Below the pieces are notes generated by a model that was given only the letters and a program-made list of their open reading frames with translations, did not search any database and had not been told where the DNA came from. Shown here piece after piece: positions 43,355 through 49,163 of a stretch of 64,000 bases of DNA. Source of the stretch: Patescibacteria group bacterium. Its GTDB lineage: Bacteria; Patescibacteriota; WWE3; JAMCXX01; JBBTUG01. The stretch covers positions 78,165 to 142,164 of the forward strand of contig JBBTUG010000012.1 of the NCBI GenBank assembly GCA_038063895.1, given 5' to 3'. A program made the position numbers and the translations under genes. The first letter of the stretch is position 1. Every line of letters begins with the position of its first letter.

Positions 43355-44506
43355 TTAGACCTGGTCGGGTTCTTCTGGTTCTCCCGATTGTAATAATTTG
43401 ATCTGTGGCAAAGCCTGGCCGGCGATACCTGTCATACTACCGTAGATACCCGAAACTCCTAATAGCAGCCTGTCAACCTGTATCTCTCTGAGTTTCCAGG
43501 ATCTTTCAGCCGACGCACGTTCTTTAGATATTTGTCCCTTCATCTCTAAATATGTTTCCGCCATTCTTTCAACTTGTTGTGCAAATTCATGACTCGTCAC
43601 GAAGTCGTACATTTCCTCGGCCGTACTTTGTTTTAGCGTAACTGTTGCTTTTTCTTTTGCCACATCGTAAAGATTTTTACGCAAAAGCGCCCCTAAGGGT
43701 TCTATAAGCTTTGGGCTAACAATCCAAACGCCGCCTTTTTCTCCTATTTCTTTTTTAAAATCAATCGGCAGGGCTTCGCTCACAATCACCCCTATATGGG
43801 CCTTATCTCGTTGTACATCTCCCTTTAACTTACTGATCCAGCTATCAGACCACGCTTTAGTTCTTTTACTTTCCCAGATTATTTTCCCGCATATTGTACC
43901 CCGGGCTGTTTTTATGGTATGCCGTATATCCCCACCCAATTCGCCTTTCTTAATCTCTTCTACCCCATCAGTGGGAAATAATCGCCTAAGCGTTTCTTCA
44001 AGATCAAGCTCTTGCACCTCACCCTGCAACTGCTGCGATCCTTGGTTTGCTTTTCGATTTGCGTCTTCGAGGGCTTTCGCTAGATCTGCCTTTTGCTTTT
44101 CGTATTCGGCAAACTTGAGTTTATCTTTCTCTATTTGTTCCTCCGTCGCTTTTAATCGTATCTTTTCGCGCTCTTCGTCCATTTGCCGTTGTTTTTCTAG
44201 CTCAAAGCTACGCCGGGCCTCATCTAATTCCCGTTTTTCCTTTCGTATTGCAAGTTCAGCATCCTCTGCCTTCTGCGCCCGGCCCTTTAAATTATTAATT
44301 TGTTCATCCTTGTCTTTCAGATCTTTAGAAAGTTGTTCTTTTGCTTTACTTTCTGCCGTTTCCGCCGCTTGTTTTCTCGCATCTTCGAGTTCCTGGAGGT
44401 GACGAGACTGAATAGACACAAGAATACGCTCTTCAGTTTGATGTGCTAGTGCTTCCGATACTTCAATCTCAAAACCGCACTTTTTGCACTTAATCGTTGT
44501 GTTCAT
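43355..44506 (-). CDS. DUF2130-family protein: N-terminal zinc ribbon, long coiled coil, C-terminal conserved domain
   Basis: MNTTIKCKKCGFEIEVSEALAHQ... followed by a Glu/Lys-rich coiled coil; 4-nt overlap with the upstream hsdS. Confidence 0.65.
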   Translation of the reverse strand: MNTTIKCKKCGFEIEVSEALAHQTEERILVSIQSRHLQELEDARKQAAETAESKAKEQLSKDLKDKDEQINNLKGRAQKAEDAELAIRKEKRELDEARRSFELEKQRQMDEEREKIRLKATEEQIEKDKLKFAEYEKQKADLAKALEDANRKANQGSQQLQGEVQELDLEETLRRLFPTDGVEEIKKGELGGDIRHTIKTARGTICGKIIWESKRTKAWSDSWISKLKGDVQRDKAHIGVIVSEALPIDFKKEIGEKGGVWIVSPKLIEPLGALLRKNLYDVAKEKATVTLKQSTAEEMYDFVTSHEFAQQVERMAETYLEMKGQISKERASAERSWKLREIQVDRLLLGVSGIYGSMTGIAGQALPQIKLLQSGEPEEPDQV

Positions 44507-45942
44507 AATTTTATCCTTAATTTTACTAGTTCCGTGTTAATCCACTCTTTCGCTTCCTTTTCGTTCTTCTCAATCGCCGTTTCCACGCCGTGCTTGGCGA
44601 TTTCAAGCAGAGCCTTTGACGAGTTCCCATCATTAAATGATTCTTCAACAAGTTTCTTGATTTCCTCTTGCTTATCGTTTTTCAAAAGGGGAATTATCGT
44701 TGCTGTGACTTGATCGGGTCGCCAATGATTAATAATCGATCCGCCGGCATCGCGTTCAATTTGTTTTTGGACGATCACGGAATTTAAAACAAGCGTCAGA
44801 TATTCCGGCAATACTTTTCGACTATCTACTATTAATCTCAAAATACCACCAGAAACTATCATTTTTTGCGATTCTTCGTTCAGATAATAGGCTAGGCCGG
44901 GCGTTGCGTCTTTTGAAAGCAATATCTCGCCTTTCTTCGGCTGATGAATTTTTAGTTCGTTGTACAATTCTTCGGATATAAACTGCTGATTGTTGTCGGA
45001 AAGCTCAAATTTAGAAATATTGCTCACGCGGACAAACGGCACGCCATTTTCTTTGTATGCGTCACTTCCTGGTTCAACGCTTTTTTTGATTTTCACTAAA
45101 TTCCCCAATTCATCAAACCCCCCTTTGTATTTTTTTACTGCAGCAATAAGTTCATCATATTTTGGCTGGAAATATTCCGCGTCGGCGCGCTCGGCGTACT
45201 TTACGCCAGAAAGTTTAACGACAAATACTAAGTCGTCTTCAACTTGATAATCCTTTAATCCCAATTCTTCCAAAAGCAGGTTTTCAGCGTTTGAATAATG
45301 TTGAGCTGCTACGATTTTATATTTTCTTGAGCTCTTTATAAGAGAATCAATTTTCTGCTGAAAAGAAATACTAGTAATCGGAATAGTAATATTTTCAACT
45401 TCCCTGCAATTTAGATTTACCTGCTCGGTTTGACGGCTTTGTTGCCAGAGCTGATACCGTCCATATTTTCCTCTTAAAAAAGATTCTAGGTAAGAAGAAA
45501 GGATAGTATCCAAGGGTCTAATCAAGGCTATATTCTGATTTATATTCATCTTTGGATCATCGACGAAAACCCGAGCGGTTCTCCCTACGATTTCATAGGA
45601 AGCACCTATTATAGTAACCAGAACATCCCTCTCTTTTGGTTCAGAGTATTTTCTACTTTCACCCACCGGTAAATTATCAGCGAATTCAAATTTAATCTCC
45701 CCGTCTCTAAGAGAATCGGTCTTTATAAACTTAATATCTGTACCGTCTTGTCTACAAATCCGCCGTTTTGGAGTTGTCCCCGTTAAAACAGGCCGGGATA
45801 CTAATTCCTTTAGTATTTTGGAACGTAAACCAGAATCACTAATGACTTTTTTGATTGACAAATATTCCGGTTGGTAATATTCCGCATCCAGCCGTAAGGA
45901 ACCTTCGAGTTGGGATTTTTGGATAACTGAATAGTTCATCAC
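44503..45942 (-). CDS. hsdS: Restriction-modification specificity subunit (HsdS-like, two target-recognition domains)
   Basis: LEGSLRLDAEYYQPEY at the N-terminus and the repeated conserved coiled region (...ELKIHQPKKGEILLSKDATPGLAYY...). Confidence 0.85.
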   Translation of the reverse strand: MMNYSVIQKSQLEGSLRLDAEYYQPEYLSIKKVISDSGLRSKILKELVSRPVLTGTTPKRRICRQDGTDIKFIKTDSLRDGEIKFEFADNLPVGESRKYSEPKERDVLVTIIGASYEIVGRTARVFVDDPKMNINQNIALIRPLDTILSSYLESFLRGKYGRYQLWQQSRQTEQVNLNCREVENITIPITSISFQQKIDSLIKSSRKYKIVAAQHYSNAENLLLEELGLKDYQVEDDLVFVVKLSGVKYAERADAEYFQPKYDELIAAVKKYKGGFDELGNLVKIKKSVEPGSDAYKENGVPFVRVSNISKFELSDNNQQFISEELYNELKIHQPKKGEILLSKDATPGLAYYLNEESQKMIVSGGILRLIVDSRKVLPEYLTLVLNSVIVQKQIERDAGGSIINHWRPDQVTATIIPLLKNDKQEEIKKLVEESFNDGNSSKALLEIAKHGVETAIEKNEKEAKEWINTELVKLRIKL

Positions 45943-46565
45943 AGGGGTTTGATTTTTGAGTATTTCAAAATTTCTATATAGGAAAGAAAAGCCTTGCCCG
46001 TGTTTGTTATCATAATATTACCTTCTTCATCGTTGGCTATTAAACCAGAGTTGAATAAGAAGCTTAGATAGTCTCCTATGTTGTAGTTTTTATGTATTGG
46101 GTATTGATTTTGTAGCCCTTGAAAAAACCCATTTTGCCCAGTGTTTGTTAAATGAGTGACTCTATTTAAAAACTCTAATAATCTTATCTGACTTCCAAAT
46201 ATAAAGTTGTAGATTCTTTCGAAACCTAAATAGACTTGCGTATTAGCCAGTTCATTCTGGAGTTTCCTTTCGTTATCCCCTAAACTCTTGATTTTTTCTT
46301 CATACTCATCTTTAATTTTGTTTAGGTTGGTATCCACTGATTTATTAAGGTCTTCTTCCTGTAACTCTTTTGTTTTTTTATTTTGTTCTTCGATTTGGTC
46401 CCCAATATCAATCTGCGTATCGCCAGGCCCTTTAATACTTTTAATTCCAGCAATCAGGTTTCTGATACTCGATCTAAAGTAAATTAGTGAGCAGGAAACA
46501 ATGAAGGGCCAGGTAATTGCTTTTGTGTAATCCAATAAAAGTTTCCAATCCATTTCTACCTCCAA
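45939..46565 (-). CDS. Hypothetical protein encoded between the MTase and S genes: N-terminal TM helix, central coiled coil, C-terminal domain of unknown function
   Basis: AITWPFIVSCSLIYF TM segment; translationally coupled (overlaps) on both sides within the R-M operon. Confidence 0.6.
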   Translation of the reverse strand: MEVEMDWKLLLDYTKAITWPFIVSCSLIYFRSSIRNLIAGIKSIKGPGDTQIDIGDQIEEQNKKTKELQEEDLNKSVDTNLNKIKDEYEEKIKSLGDNERKLQNELANTQVYLGFERIYNFIFGSQIRLLEFLNRVTHLTNTGQNGFFQGLQNQYPIHKNYNIGDYLSFLFNSGLIANDEEGNIMITNTGKAFLSYIEILKYSKIKPL

Positions 46566-48517: not shown

Positions 48518-48524
48518 AAAACAT

Positions 48525-49163
48525 CTAGCTAACCTGACTCCATCGGTTATTCTTAAATAAAGAAACAACCTTGCCGATTAGTTTCATTTCCTCGGTTATG
48601 GGAATTATTGGATAGTTCGGGTTCTCCGGTTTTAAGTAAACGTATGGTGGCGTGTCCGTGGAAACAAAACGTTTAATGGTGGTTTCTCCATTTATATCCG
48701 CCAAGACCACGTTCCCCGAAACAAATTCCTTGTCCGCTTTTACTAGAACCAAATCTTCATCTTCTATCCCCGCGTTAATCATGGAATCTCCATGAACTTT
48801 TAGAACAAAAACTTCGTCGTCGAGCTGTTCTAAGTCGTTAGAGACCTTCCGCCAGTTTCCGGATATTTCTATTGCTTCCGCTGGTTTACCTGCCGTTGTG
48901 GTTCCAAAAATCGGAACTAGAGATGGACGGGAAAGCTCTTTATACCCTAATGGTAAGACGGTAACACCTCTGGCGGTGGCTTCGTTCCTCTTTATTAATT
49001 TATGGTTCTCCAATTTGGACAGTAGATCAAGGATAGATTGATTTGAGGAAACATTGAGTTTATCTTTCATTTCTTCGAAAGTTGGGGGATAACCGGTAAC
49101 ATCAATAAAGTTGTATATCACCTCAAGAAGCTCTCTTTGTCTTTTTGTGACAGCCTTTTTCAT
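48525..49163 (-). CDS. lexA: LexA repressor (S24 peptidase with N-terminal wHTH)
   Basis: N-terminal LexA DNA-binding domain (KRQRELLEVIYNFIDVTGYPPTFEEM...), Ser-Lys dyad region (VHGDSMINAGIEDEDLVLVK...TIKRF). Confidence 0.85.
   Translation of the reverse strand: MKKAVTKRQRELLEVIYNFIDVTGYPPTFEEMKDKLNVSSNQSILDLLSKLENHKLIKRNEATARGVTVLPLGYKELSRPSLVPIFGTTTAGKPAEAIEISGNWRKVSNDLEQLDDEVFVLKVHGDSMINAGIEDEDLVLVKADKEFVSGNVVLADINGETTIKRFVSTDTPPYVYLKPENPNYPIIPITEEMKLIGKVVSLFKNNRWSQVS

Follow-up and report, generated by a model that had tools for sequence, protein, structure and literature searches.

A lexA-led gene module encoding a putative Type IIB-like restriction-modification enzyme in a member of the Patescibacteria

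Which kind of restriction-modification system is encoded by the AT-rich gene block found next to lexA in the 64-kb stretch of DNA analysed here (hereafter the window), and which of the neighboring genes belong to it? A preliminary description had recognized a defence island of four co-directional open reading frames between positions 43355 and 48568, coding for a nuclease-methyltransferase fusion, a 208-aa protein (p208), HsdS and a DUF2130 protein, and had read the fusion and HsdS as a BcgI-like Type IIB or other non-canonical enzyme. Our analysis bears out the four reading frames, all located on the minus strand, their domain assignments (Pfam HSDR_N_2 and N6_Mtase, Methylase_S, DUF2130) and the AT-rich nature of the region, whose GC content of 0.33-0.45 and GC3 of 0.36-0.49 lie below the values of about 0.50-0.53 (GC) in the flanks and of 0.536 ± 0.064 (GC3). 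The limits of the island need to be redrawn. The position of lexA directly upstream and of a tRNA-Cys gene nearby (49486-49560, on the strand opposite to that of lexA and the RM genes) had been correctly noted, but lexA had been treated as an outsider, whereas its GC3 of 0.418 places it inside the low-GC block. Since this block includes lexA, and since the DUF2130 gene does not appear to be part of the unit, the interval originally drawn omits lexA and its promoter (48525-49201) and includes a gene that lies outside. We consider it probable, taken as a whole, that the functional unit is a Type IIB-like module consisting of lexA, the gene for a combined restriction and modification (RM) subunit, a cargo gene and hsdS, which would be read in this order on the minus strand (44503-49201), with the DUF2130 gene outside.

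The genes of this region are tightly packed. The operon's first gene, lexA (48525-49163, minus strand, 212 aa), is followed by the RM gene (46556-48517, minus strand), whose most likely start is the ATG at 48517, 7 nt past the lexA stop codon; this yields a protein of 653 aa, the same as in NCBI record P0122, and not one of 670 aa starting from a TTG at 48568 as had initially been proposed. The most likely start of p208 (45939-46553, minus strand) is the ATG at 46553, which is preceded by GGAGG 7 nt upstream, is placed 2 nt past the RM stop codon and gives a protein of 204 aa. Overlaps of 4-10 nt had been reported for all four genes; they are present at the p208/hsdS (GTGATG) and hsdS/DUF2130 (ATGA) junctions, but the RM gene and p208 are separated by the 2-nt gap instead of overlapping by 10 nt.

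The RM protein is matched over its full length by the PADLOC profile PDLC03034 (E = 9e-176), and more than 7800 homologues share its architecture. It combines an N-terminal PD-(D/E)xK endonuclease domain (HSDR_N_2, PF13588, E = 1e-20; 47978-48307, minus strand) with an N6-adenine DNA methyltransferase domain (N6_Mtase, E = 6e-37; 46568-47578, minus strand). The sequence motifs previously pointed out in this protein are all present: motif I (DPAAGSGG, at residue 358) and motif IV (NPPF, at residue 477) of the methyltransferase, both of which are kept in 26 relatives, and the D...ExK signature of the nuclease. Its best match by sequence among proteins in the PDB is the Type IIB enzyme RM.BsaXI (E = 5e-30, 108 bits), with the best HsdM following at 2e-16; RM.BsaXI is also the best match by fold, over the full length (E = 4e-18); the AF2 model of the RM protein is poor (pLDDT 63.5). 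In the structural alignment, the two proteins share about 21% identity. In the sequence comparison, residues E97, D112, E128 and K130 of the window protein (653-aa numbering) align with E73, D90, E105 and K107 of BsaXI, whose catalytic role was established by mutagenesis (PMC11997821). None of the four residues varies among 26 family members of 45-100% identity, a pattern that speaks for a functional active site. The partner of this protein would be HsdS (44503-45942, minus strand, 479 aa), which is matched by the PADLOC profile Specificity_I (E = 5e-37) and by Pfam Methylase_S in two stretches, and which has two target-recognition domains (TRDs). Single-chain RMS fusions occur in the RM family (locus L027 and plasmid pAQ6 of PCC 7002), and a Klebsiella plasmid carries RM and S pairs without HsdR. 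In agreement with the preliminary description, neither a helicase nor HsdR was found among the window's reading frames of at least 396 aa, those scanned against Pfam being all housekeeping or unassigned (rpoB, rpoC, alaS and FtsK were recognized by sequence and synteny), and the 43 large reading frames within ±10 kb of 31 related loci show no recurrent helicase family. Collectively, these data support the view that the large protein and HsdS form a motor-less, BcgI/BsaXI-like Type IIB enzyme and not a Type I system.

Gene order across related loci indicates that lexA is the conserved first gene of this module and not an incidental neighbor. The encoded protein possesses the Pfam domains LexA_DNA_bind and Peptidase_S24, scores 152 bits against NCBIfam TIGR00498 (cut-off 111), and keeps the Ala-Gly cleavage site, the serine of the GDSM motif and the lysine of the KRF motif. 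In all 17 LexA-bearing loci of the Patescibacteria type (L005-L014, L016, L019-L021, L030, L031 and L127), as in the window, lexA lies directly upstream of the RM gene; in 16 of the 17 the two genes overlap or are at most 8 nt apart, too close for the RM gene to have a promoter of its own, and in L014 one small reading frame lies between them. Pairwise identities of LexA and RM co-vary (r = 0.72) with the same clade split, and these congruent clades are out of step with the taxon labels of the MAGs, while the genes upstream of lexA vary from locus to locus. Judged from these comparisons, the RM gene of candidate-phyla-radiation (CPR) bacteria is almost always the second gene of a lexA-led operon. 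In non-CPR relatives, RadC or an XRE regulator occupies the position of lexA, which suggests a functional slot for a leader gene. The preliminary description had named lexA only as the upstream neighbor and made no connection between the RM operon and the SOS repressor.

The lexA promoter (49172-49201, minus strand), as found by a promoter scan, consists of a -35 hexamer TTGACA, a spacer with the palindrome GACTAAACAGTC, and a -10 hexamer TAACAT. The layout TTGACA...GACyawwtrGTC(GGG)TATAAT is common to 16 lexA-RM loci, although several of them carry a degenerate left half-palindrome. A regular expression for the palindrome has nine matches in 560 kb, six of which are at lexA promoters, and the sequence in the lexA promoter is the sole exact match in the 64-kb window. 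The palindrome is thus likely a LexA operator; a LexA motif for Patescibacteria has been published (Sanchez-Osuna et al., 2017, as cited in PMC8565304).

The closest cassette, L127, delineates the module further. It is 84.6% identical to the window at the nucleotide level over a homologous stretch that reaches from the -35 hexamer (49201) to the hsdS stop codon (44503), beyond which neither flank is related. Within hsdS, conservation extends over the N-terminal 82 nt and the C-terminal 786 nt, and TRD1 is the part that has been exchanged. The L127 cassette consists of lexA, RM and S only and lacks p208, so that the 208-aa protein, previously viewed as a candidate add-on, is better described as variable cargo. 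In 20 loci, the interval between RM and S holds 32 co-directional reading frames, including NYN, DUF3800, DUF4145, DUF5677, PemK/MazF, Fic and NucS-like genes and many unknowns. These comparisons show the RM-S slot to be a hot spot for exchangeable accessory genes, with p208 as one alternative of many. The p208 protein has a hydrophobic helix at its N-terminus, a winged helix at its C-terminus and a coiled coil; it has no match among the families of Pfam, PADLOC, NCBIfam and PHROG, and an exhaustive search retrieved 1282 representatives at E ≤ 1e-3. The fold matches of its AF2 model (pLDDT 85.6) are winged-helix regulators, at weak E-values of about 0.07. With respect to the proposed co-occurrence of this gene with restriction-modification genes, the picture is divided: its closest relatives also fill the RM-S slot (L039, L040, L043, L082), whereas the contexts of 76 more distant relatives are heterogeneous and share no constant partner. 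Our best guess is that p208, riding on the operon, acts as an independent accessory or regulatory factor.

The DUF2130 gene (43355-44506, minus strand, 383 aa; PF09903, E = 1e-54) codes for a protein that has a CxxC motif and a coiled coil as well as a PD-(D/E)xK domain, and whose residues D193, E212 and K214 do not vary across 33 homologues; the family is listed within the PD-(D/E)xK superfamily (PMC3424549). It had been considered part of a four-gene unit, a view that finds no support: the gene is present at none of the 31 related RM loci, and the homology to L127 stops at the hsdS stop codon. Nor did the suggested co-occurrence with restriction-modification genes in other genomes materialize, as none was found next to DUF2130 genes in any of seven other contexts. 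Three of five other CPR loci carry the gene near rpoB, as does the window, and rpoB, PDDEXK_1 and YceG are recurrent neighbors of CPR DUF2130 genes. In all likelihood, this is an RmuC-like coiled-coil nuclease gene that abuts the cassette without being a member of the module. Its low GC3 (0.393) and its start overlapping the hsdS stop codon make co-transcription with the cassette likely in this genome, even if fortuitous.

Several other explanations of this locus have to be weighed. The large protein could be an HsdM whose HsdR_N-like domain is mere decoration; the Type I system to which it belongs would then be orphan or split, with an HsdR encoded elsewhere or with a methyltransferase that serves an epigenetic or regulatory role by itself. 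The best PADLOC profile of the protein is indeed labelled MTase_I ('Type I methyltransferase', in REBASE naming), S matches Specificity_I, the methyltransferase core matches HsdM structures too, and our view is limited to 64 kb of the genome. We regard this explanation as distinctly unlikely, given the invariant nuclease tetrad, the sequence E-value of BsaXI, which lies 14 orders of magnitude ahead of that of any HsdM, and its full-length alignment, the lack of an HsdR-like gene in the window or recurring within ±10 kb of the 31 relatives, and the single-chain RMS fusions. That the locus is a reduced methylation-associated defence system (MADS; mad1-8; bioRxiv 10.1101/2023.03.30.534895) seems extremely improbable. 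The best-named matches are NCBIfam MAD2 (313 bits) and MAD5 (158 bits), the PADLOC mad2 and mad5 profiles match too, and the two gene orders are alike: a regulator gene comes first, a MAD2-like methyltransferase of equal overall length second, and further genes separate M from a MAD5-like S. The scores, however, fall far short of the curated cut-offs of 720 and 400, the leader is LexA rather than the mad1 regulator, and MAD6, MAD7 and MAD8, which are mandatory in the authors' model, are absent here.

As to the composition of the module, a defence system of RM, p208, HsdS and DUF2130, in which DUF2130 and the 208-aa protein act as effectors or abortive-infection add-ons, would be in keeping with the tight packing and overlapping stop and start codons, with the invariant D...ExK motif and low GC3 of DUF2130, and with the RM-S location of the closest p208 relatives. 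It is nevertheless very unlikely in view of the DUF2130-free RM loci, the seven DUF2130 contexts devoid of restriction-modification genes, the distant p208 relatives without a fixed partner, and the three-gene L127 cassette that ends with hsdS. More weight, though still on the unlikely side, is due to the possibility that the adjacency of lexA has no regulatory meaning, the RM-S genes either inserting preferentially behind a resident CPR lexA or having been fixed there once and inherited. In its favor, the genes before lexA differ between loci, LexA scores above the equivalog cut-off of the housekeeping repressor, and compact CPR genomes commonly have short intergenic gaps. Against it stand the near-contiguity of lexA and RM in 16 of 17 loci, the clades congruent between LexA and RM that do not follow MAG taxon labels, the presence of RadC or an XRE regulator in the position of lexA outside the CPR, and the homology to L127, which starts at the lexA promoter and not behind lexA, between flanks unrelated on both sides.

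The lexA-led Type IIB-like module that we favor shares traits with known systems. With BcgI and BsaXI, which represent the 'RM + S' group of Type IIB enzymes (Shen et al., 2025; PMC11997821), the predicted enzyme has in common a single polypeptide in which a helical connector links an N-terminal PD-(D/E)xK nuclease to an N6-adenine methyltransferase, a separate S subunit with two TRDs, the E-D-ExK tetrad and the lack of a translocase. It is only distantly related to BsaXI, a protein of 916 aa with a C-terminal 'paddle' for which the 653-aa RM protein is too short. The A subunit of BcgI, at 637 aa, is close to it in size. In the papers on BcgI and BsaXI considered here, no operon was found that is headed by lexA and holds cargo between its RM and S genes, and we found no description of such a LexA-led arrangement around this known kind of enzyme. 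Accessory genes are embedded in Type I systems, as exemplified by PrrC in EcoprrI and the 'restriction-linked ORFs' of Campylobacter hsd loci. Such systems resemble the window locus in their HsdS-type S, their HsdM-like core and the variable, often toxin-like genes between hsd genes, but the window locus lacks the HsdR motor and has its nuclease fused to the methyltransferase. In Type II operons controlled by a C protein, the gene for a small DNA-binding repressor directly precedes the restriction gene and shares its transcript, and the repressor's operator lies in its own promoter. Here, too, a DNA-binding repressor gene leads the restriction gene and a candidate operator lies in the repressor's promoter, but the leader is a complete LexA, whose self-cleaving peptidase domain responds to RecA.

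These observations lend themselves to a model in which the 653-aa protein would serve as a combined restriction and modification subunit (PD-(D/E)xK endonuclease, helical connector, gamma-class N6-adenine methyltransferase) that partners the two-TRD specificity subunit. By analogy to BsaXI and BcgI, two RM chains and one S chain would form a complex that recognizes a bipartite site and, dependent on SAM, methylates one adenine per half-site; unmethylated DNA would be cut at fixed distances from the site, and, as in these two enzymes, on both of its sides, with a need for Mg2+ but without ATP or a translocase. Transcription would proceed from the lexA promoter, with the palindrome as candidate LexA operator. 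As the genes are packed with gaps of at most 7 nt or overlaps, LexA would set a self-limited, low level of the enzyme, and RecA-stimulated cleavage of LexA would relieve this repression. With a full LexA as leader, control of this restriction-modification module would consequently answer to DNA damage and not to gene dosage alone.

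In the window, which is part of a Patescibacteria (CPR) metagenome-assembled genome (MAG), the locus consists of five closely packed genes on the minus strand, flanked by FtsK/YtxH-type genes and alaS-rpoBC: lexA (48525-49163, 212 aa), the gene for a nuclease-methyltransferase fusion, here RM (46556-48517, 653 aa), a middle gene that we refer to as p208 (45939-46553, 204 aa), hsdS for the specificity subunit S (44503-45942, 479 aa), and a DUF2130 gene (43355-44506, 383 aa). The start codon of RM is most probably the ATG placed 7 nt past the lexA stop codon, which yields 653 aa in agreement with the public record, and that of p208 is most probably an ATG having GGAGG 7 nt 5' of it. 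The preliminary description had all genes downstream of lexA overlapping one another; stop and start codons do overlap at the p208/S and S/DUF2130 junctions, but the start of p208 had to be revised to the ATG at 46553. Its remarks on an AT-rich island that is situated directly 3' of lexA and near tRNA-Cys are borne out, with the addition that lexA itself belongs to the five-gene block that is richer in AT than its flanks.

The tRNA-Cys gene is found upstream of the block on the opposite strand. Integration at this tRNA was considered and rejected, as the window contains neither an integrase nor flanking direct repeats; an internal duplication in hsdS is the sole notable outcome of a direct-repeat search around the cassette, and a tRNA is not regularly adjacent to the module at the 16 related loci checked. 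An Rfam search of the window returned tRNA only. Between tRNA-Cys and the lexA promoter lies a strong promoter-like site on the minus strand (TTGACA-17-TAAAAT with a TG, 49430-49402), and 3' of it a highly structured element within 49255-49430 (minus strand) that has a 24-bp closing stem and ends in U7. This element, which is without an Rfam match (RNA fold -70.2 kcal/mol, z=-9.1), is a candidate for a small RNA or, alternatively, for a terminator of unusual size.

The RM protein combines an HSDR_N_2 domain (residues 88-197 of the 670-aa frame obtained when reading from a TTG; Pfam E=1e-20) with an N6_Mtase domain (331-667; E=6e-37), and a PADLOC profile labelled MTase_I spans its full length (E=9e-176). 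Among all solved structures, its best relative is the Type IIB enzyme RM.BsaXI (E=5e-30), with the best Type I HsdM reaching 2e-16. A fold search likewise ranks BsaXI first, with a match along the entire protein; the low-confidence AF2 model (pLDDT 63.5) was used for this ranking only. The catalytic nuclease residues of BsaXI, E73, D90, E105 and K107, are conserved across Type IIB enzymes (PMC11997821); in our HMMER alignment they correspond to E97, D112, E128 and K130 of the window protein, and this tetrad is invariant in 26 RM relatives (45-100% identity), in which methyltransferase motifs I and IV are kept as well. HsdS contains Methylase_S in two stretches according to Pfam, Specificity_I profiles of PADLOC span it entirely, and an S gene is positioned 3' of RM in 30 of the 32 related loci. 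The window locus thereby possesses three hallmarks of the Type IIB RM+S group: a nuclease and an N6-adenine methyltransferase in a single chain, the tetrad, and a separate S subunit with two target-recognition domains (TRDs). Plain RM+S pairs lacking HsdR occur in the same family on a Klebsiella plasmid, and the family includes fusions of RM and S into one chain that parallel single-chain Type IIB enzymes, namely L027:9968-13765 (1265 aa; L-numbers denote related loci fetched for comparison) and L124:6977-10516 (1180 aa) on plasmid pAQ6 of Picosynechococcus PCC 7002.

Two known kinds of system were weighed against this assignment. A Type I system, to which the MTase_I and Specificity_I profile names might point, should include an HsdR that unites an SF2 helicase motor and a nuclease and is encoded together with hsdM and hsdS. 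The window proteins include neither ResIII nor Helicase_C, no ATP-dependent translocase was found in the 64-kb window or as a recurrent gene in the 10 kb on either side of the related loci (the 43 large ORFs in this range contain no recurrent helicase family), and the annotated loci L005-L007 are devoid of HsdR or helicase genes; hence, judged by these 64 kb, the window system is probably not of Type I, and the preliminary description was correct in noting that no HsdR is nearby. The second kind, MADS, is brought into play by profile matches of 313 bits for MAD2 and 158 bits for MAD5, both of which fall under the NCBIfam cut-offs of 720 and 400, respectively. Since MAD6, MAD7 and MAD8, required for MADS in its source definition, are absent along with all other mad genes at the locus, MADS was rejected too. 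With its similarity to BsaXI in sequence and fold, its invariant tetrad, the RMS fusions in its family and the lack of a helicase in the window, the BcgI-like Type IIB reading proposed earlier is the best-supported one. The window RM+S pair adds a new member to this Type IIB-like group and is ordinary in kind. We infer its stoichiometry and its cleavage geometry, by which both strands would be cut on either side of a bipartite site to release a short fragment.

Within hsdS, a 27-nt direct repeat (81% identity; 45157-45183 and 45862-45888, 705 nt apart) probably stems from the conserved regions that occur in duplicate around the two target-recognition domains. In TRD1, the window HsdS is wholly different from that of L127, the closest relative of the cassette. 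As to carriage by phages, viral contigs hold only RM relatives of 40-47% identity and no CPR-type module.

The DUF2130 protein (PF09903, E=1e-54), in which an N-terminal CxxC is followed by a long coiled coil and then by a C-terminal domain, had been put forward as an accessory factor of the restriction system. Residues D193, E212 and K214 (D...ExK) of the C-terminal domain are invariant in 33 sequences, consistent with the listing of DUF2130 in the PD-(D/E)xK superfamily (PMC3424549), and this motif made the protein an attractive candidate for a missing restriction nuclease. We nevertheless rejected that role on gene context, and the accessory role did not survive the co-occurrence check: DUF2130 is found in none of the 31 RM loci, and R-M genes stand beside none of the seven other DUF2130 contexts. 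Five other CPR loci with DUF2130 homologues (53-57% identity) are without R-M genes and represent the same chromosomal region as that of DUF2130 in the window, with PDDEXK_1, rpoB, YceG, S7 and EF-G as recurrent neighbors. The gene recurs in the rpoBC/str-operon region of CPR genomes (L003, L121, L122 and window 29041-44506), and a 275-aa PDDEXK_1 gene is often close to it; this recurrence gives a hint that the uncharacterised DUF2130 nuclease has a housekeeping function in DNA processing. Solitary homologues (33-36% identity) are also encoded on conjugative plasmids, L126 (Mesorhizobium pMLa) and L125 (Granulicella pACIX903), next to relaxase, ParA, DUF736 and zincin-like genes, and others occur in the phage-like Helicobacter heilmannii records BK070121-BK070128. 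In this genome, the low GC3 of the DUF2130 gene (0.393) and its ATGA overlap with hsdS make co-transcription with the cassette probable. The junction itself looks fortuitous, as the TTATGA used in the S/DUF2130 overlap also ends hsdS in L127. Tight packing alone is consequently a poor guide to operon-system membership in compact genomes.

The linkage of the restriction genes to lexA is a moderately surprising and testable regularity. We searched the neighborhoods of close homologues and 31 genome loci, using the window proteins as queries against their ORFs. In all LexA-bearing loci, the window and 16 other distinct ones, lexA is positioned directly 5' of RM, and every such locus with a taxon label is labelled Patescibacteria. 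The window LexA consists of a LexA winged-helix domain and an S24 peptidase and passes the NCBIfam equivalog cut-off (TIGR00498, 152 bits versus 111); 16 sequences retain the Ala-Gly site at which LexA is cleaved, together with the Ser/Lys dyad (the GDSM serine and the KRF lysine). Pairwise identities of LexA and RM co-vary (r=0.72) and yield the same clades, which do not track the taxon labels of the MAGs; the closest RM clade alone (73-82% identity) extends over loci with several different CPR labels. L127, whose RM is 93% identical, resembles the window by 84.6% at the nucleotide level in a stretch that runs precisely from the -35 hexamer (49201) to the hsdS stop codon (44503); both flanks are unrelated, and L127 has no gene between RM and S. 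Taken together, the adjacency, the common promoter layout, the LexA/RM co-variation and these limits of homology indicate that lexA-RM-S is a discrete module.

The lexA and RM genes are separated by 1-8 nt or overlap, the exception being L014, the sole locus in which an ORF parts them. Its 394-nt gap contains a 127-aa hydrophobic ORF without a family match (L014:8242-8625). The RM protein of L014 groups with those of L012 and L031 (76-80% identity) and is only 59-65% identical to the subclade of the window, a split that LexA does not display, which suggests that the RM gene of L014 was replaced through recombination. Among RM relatives lacking LexA, its position is taken by an XRE regulator at one locus and at five by RadC, either complete with UPF0758_N and JAB or reduced to the N-terminal half: L015:9326-9997, L017:9282-9962, L022:3195-3899, L018:116-1087 and L033:9511-9933 (full in three, UPF0758_N only in two). 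The RadC-type gene abuts RM directly in L015, L017 and L033. These RadC-associated loci stem from WOR-3, Caldisericum, Altarchaeum and one Parcubacteria genome.

The promoter layout is common to 16 of 16 lexA-RM loci and comprises TTGACA, the palindrome GACyawwtrGTC, TATAAT and a very short leader. Conserved between the -35 and -10 elements and often directly followed by GGG, the palindrome is nearly exclusive to this site, with six of its nine regex occurrences in 560 kb at the lexA promoter position; no additional LexA box in promoter position was found in the window. We infer that LexA would repress the operon through this candidate operator and that DNA damage would release the repression. 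A consensus DnaA box (TTATCCACA or its complement) is present 20-60 nt 5' of the lexA -35 element in 8 of the 16 lexA-RM loci, exactly in L005, L006, L008, L011, L014, L019, L030 and L031; L009 and L013 have it with one mismatch, and the lexA promoters of the window and of L127 have none. By chance, about 0.0008 exact matches would be expected per locus in 100 nt.

Between RM and S, 20 loci contain a total of 32 co-directional ORFs, with the other loci lacking an insert. This cargo slot holds genes for DUF3800 (4), NYN (4, including L039), DUF4145, DUF5677, a PemK/MazF toxin, Fic, a NucS-like/DUF5655 protein, PD-(D/E)xK-like proteins without an assigned family and small hydrophobic coiled-coil proteins. 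The p208 protein has no significant match in Pfam, NCBIfam, PADLOC or PHROGs, and a word-index homology search recovered only itself, yet it is a member of an uncharacterised family with about 1300 representatives. In its AF2 model (pLDDT 85.6), the N-terminus forms a hydrophobic helix that is conserved, the coiled coil is modelled with lower confidence, and the C-terminus folds into a winged helix that only weakly resembles MarR/PadR/ArsR regulators, with no fold match at E<=0.001. Co-occurrence of p208 with restriction genes holds for its closest relatives, which sit in the RM-S slot as well (L039, L040, L043 and L082), but not for 76 more distant ones, whose mixed contexts (integrases, TIR, AAA_15/21, Hypoth_Ymh and XRE genes) reveal no fixed partner. 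p208 is therefore best described as one among many alternative riders on the operon. Overall, the observation of the preliminary description is confirmed in part, and its interpretation is partly supported.

The form of the operon, in which lexA is the leader gene and RM and S are separated by a slot of variable cargo, seems not to have been described. Our literature search for LexA together with CPR/Patescibacteria and restriction gave no match within a coverage that did not extend to Sanchez-Osuna et al. (2017). That a motor-less BcgI-like enzyme is hard-wired behind lexA across its closest clade suggests a tie between restriction and the SOS circuit in small CPR genomes, serving either dosage control or a damage-induced defence. 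The CPR lineage is largely without CRISPR and is thought to depend mainly on restriction-modification for its defence; to our knowledge, almost nothing has been tested of these restriction-modification systems. Annotation labels such as 'N-6 DNA methylase' or 'Type I M' conceal numerous probable restriction enzymes that make up one large family, and the variable RM-S slot is a practical place to search for new accessory or abortive-infection genes.

We tentatively propose, as a possibility rather than the likely case, that lexA-RM-[cargo]-S is a self-contained, exchangeable CPR module with LexA as its own controller and with a damage-gated, two-layered defence as its function. LexA would keep the restriction, methylation and cargo genes (those for NYN, DUF3800, Fic, MazF-like, winged-helix and other proteins) at a low level. 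DNA breaks, including any that the enzyme introduces into invading DNA, would activate RecA, upon which all of these genes would be released together. If the proposal is true, the RM-S slot would offer a ready-made list of CPR defence genes that await characterisation, and both the RadC genes that take the place of lexA in other phyla and the DnaA boxes at many CPR promoters would indicate that this enzyme family is more widely coupled to replication and damage signals.
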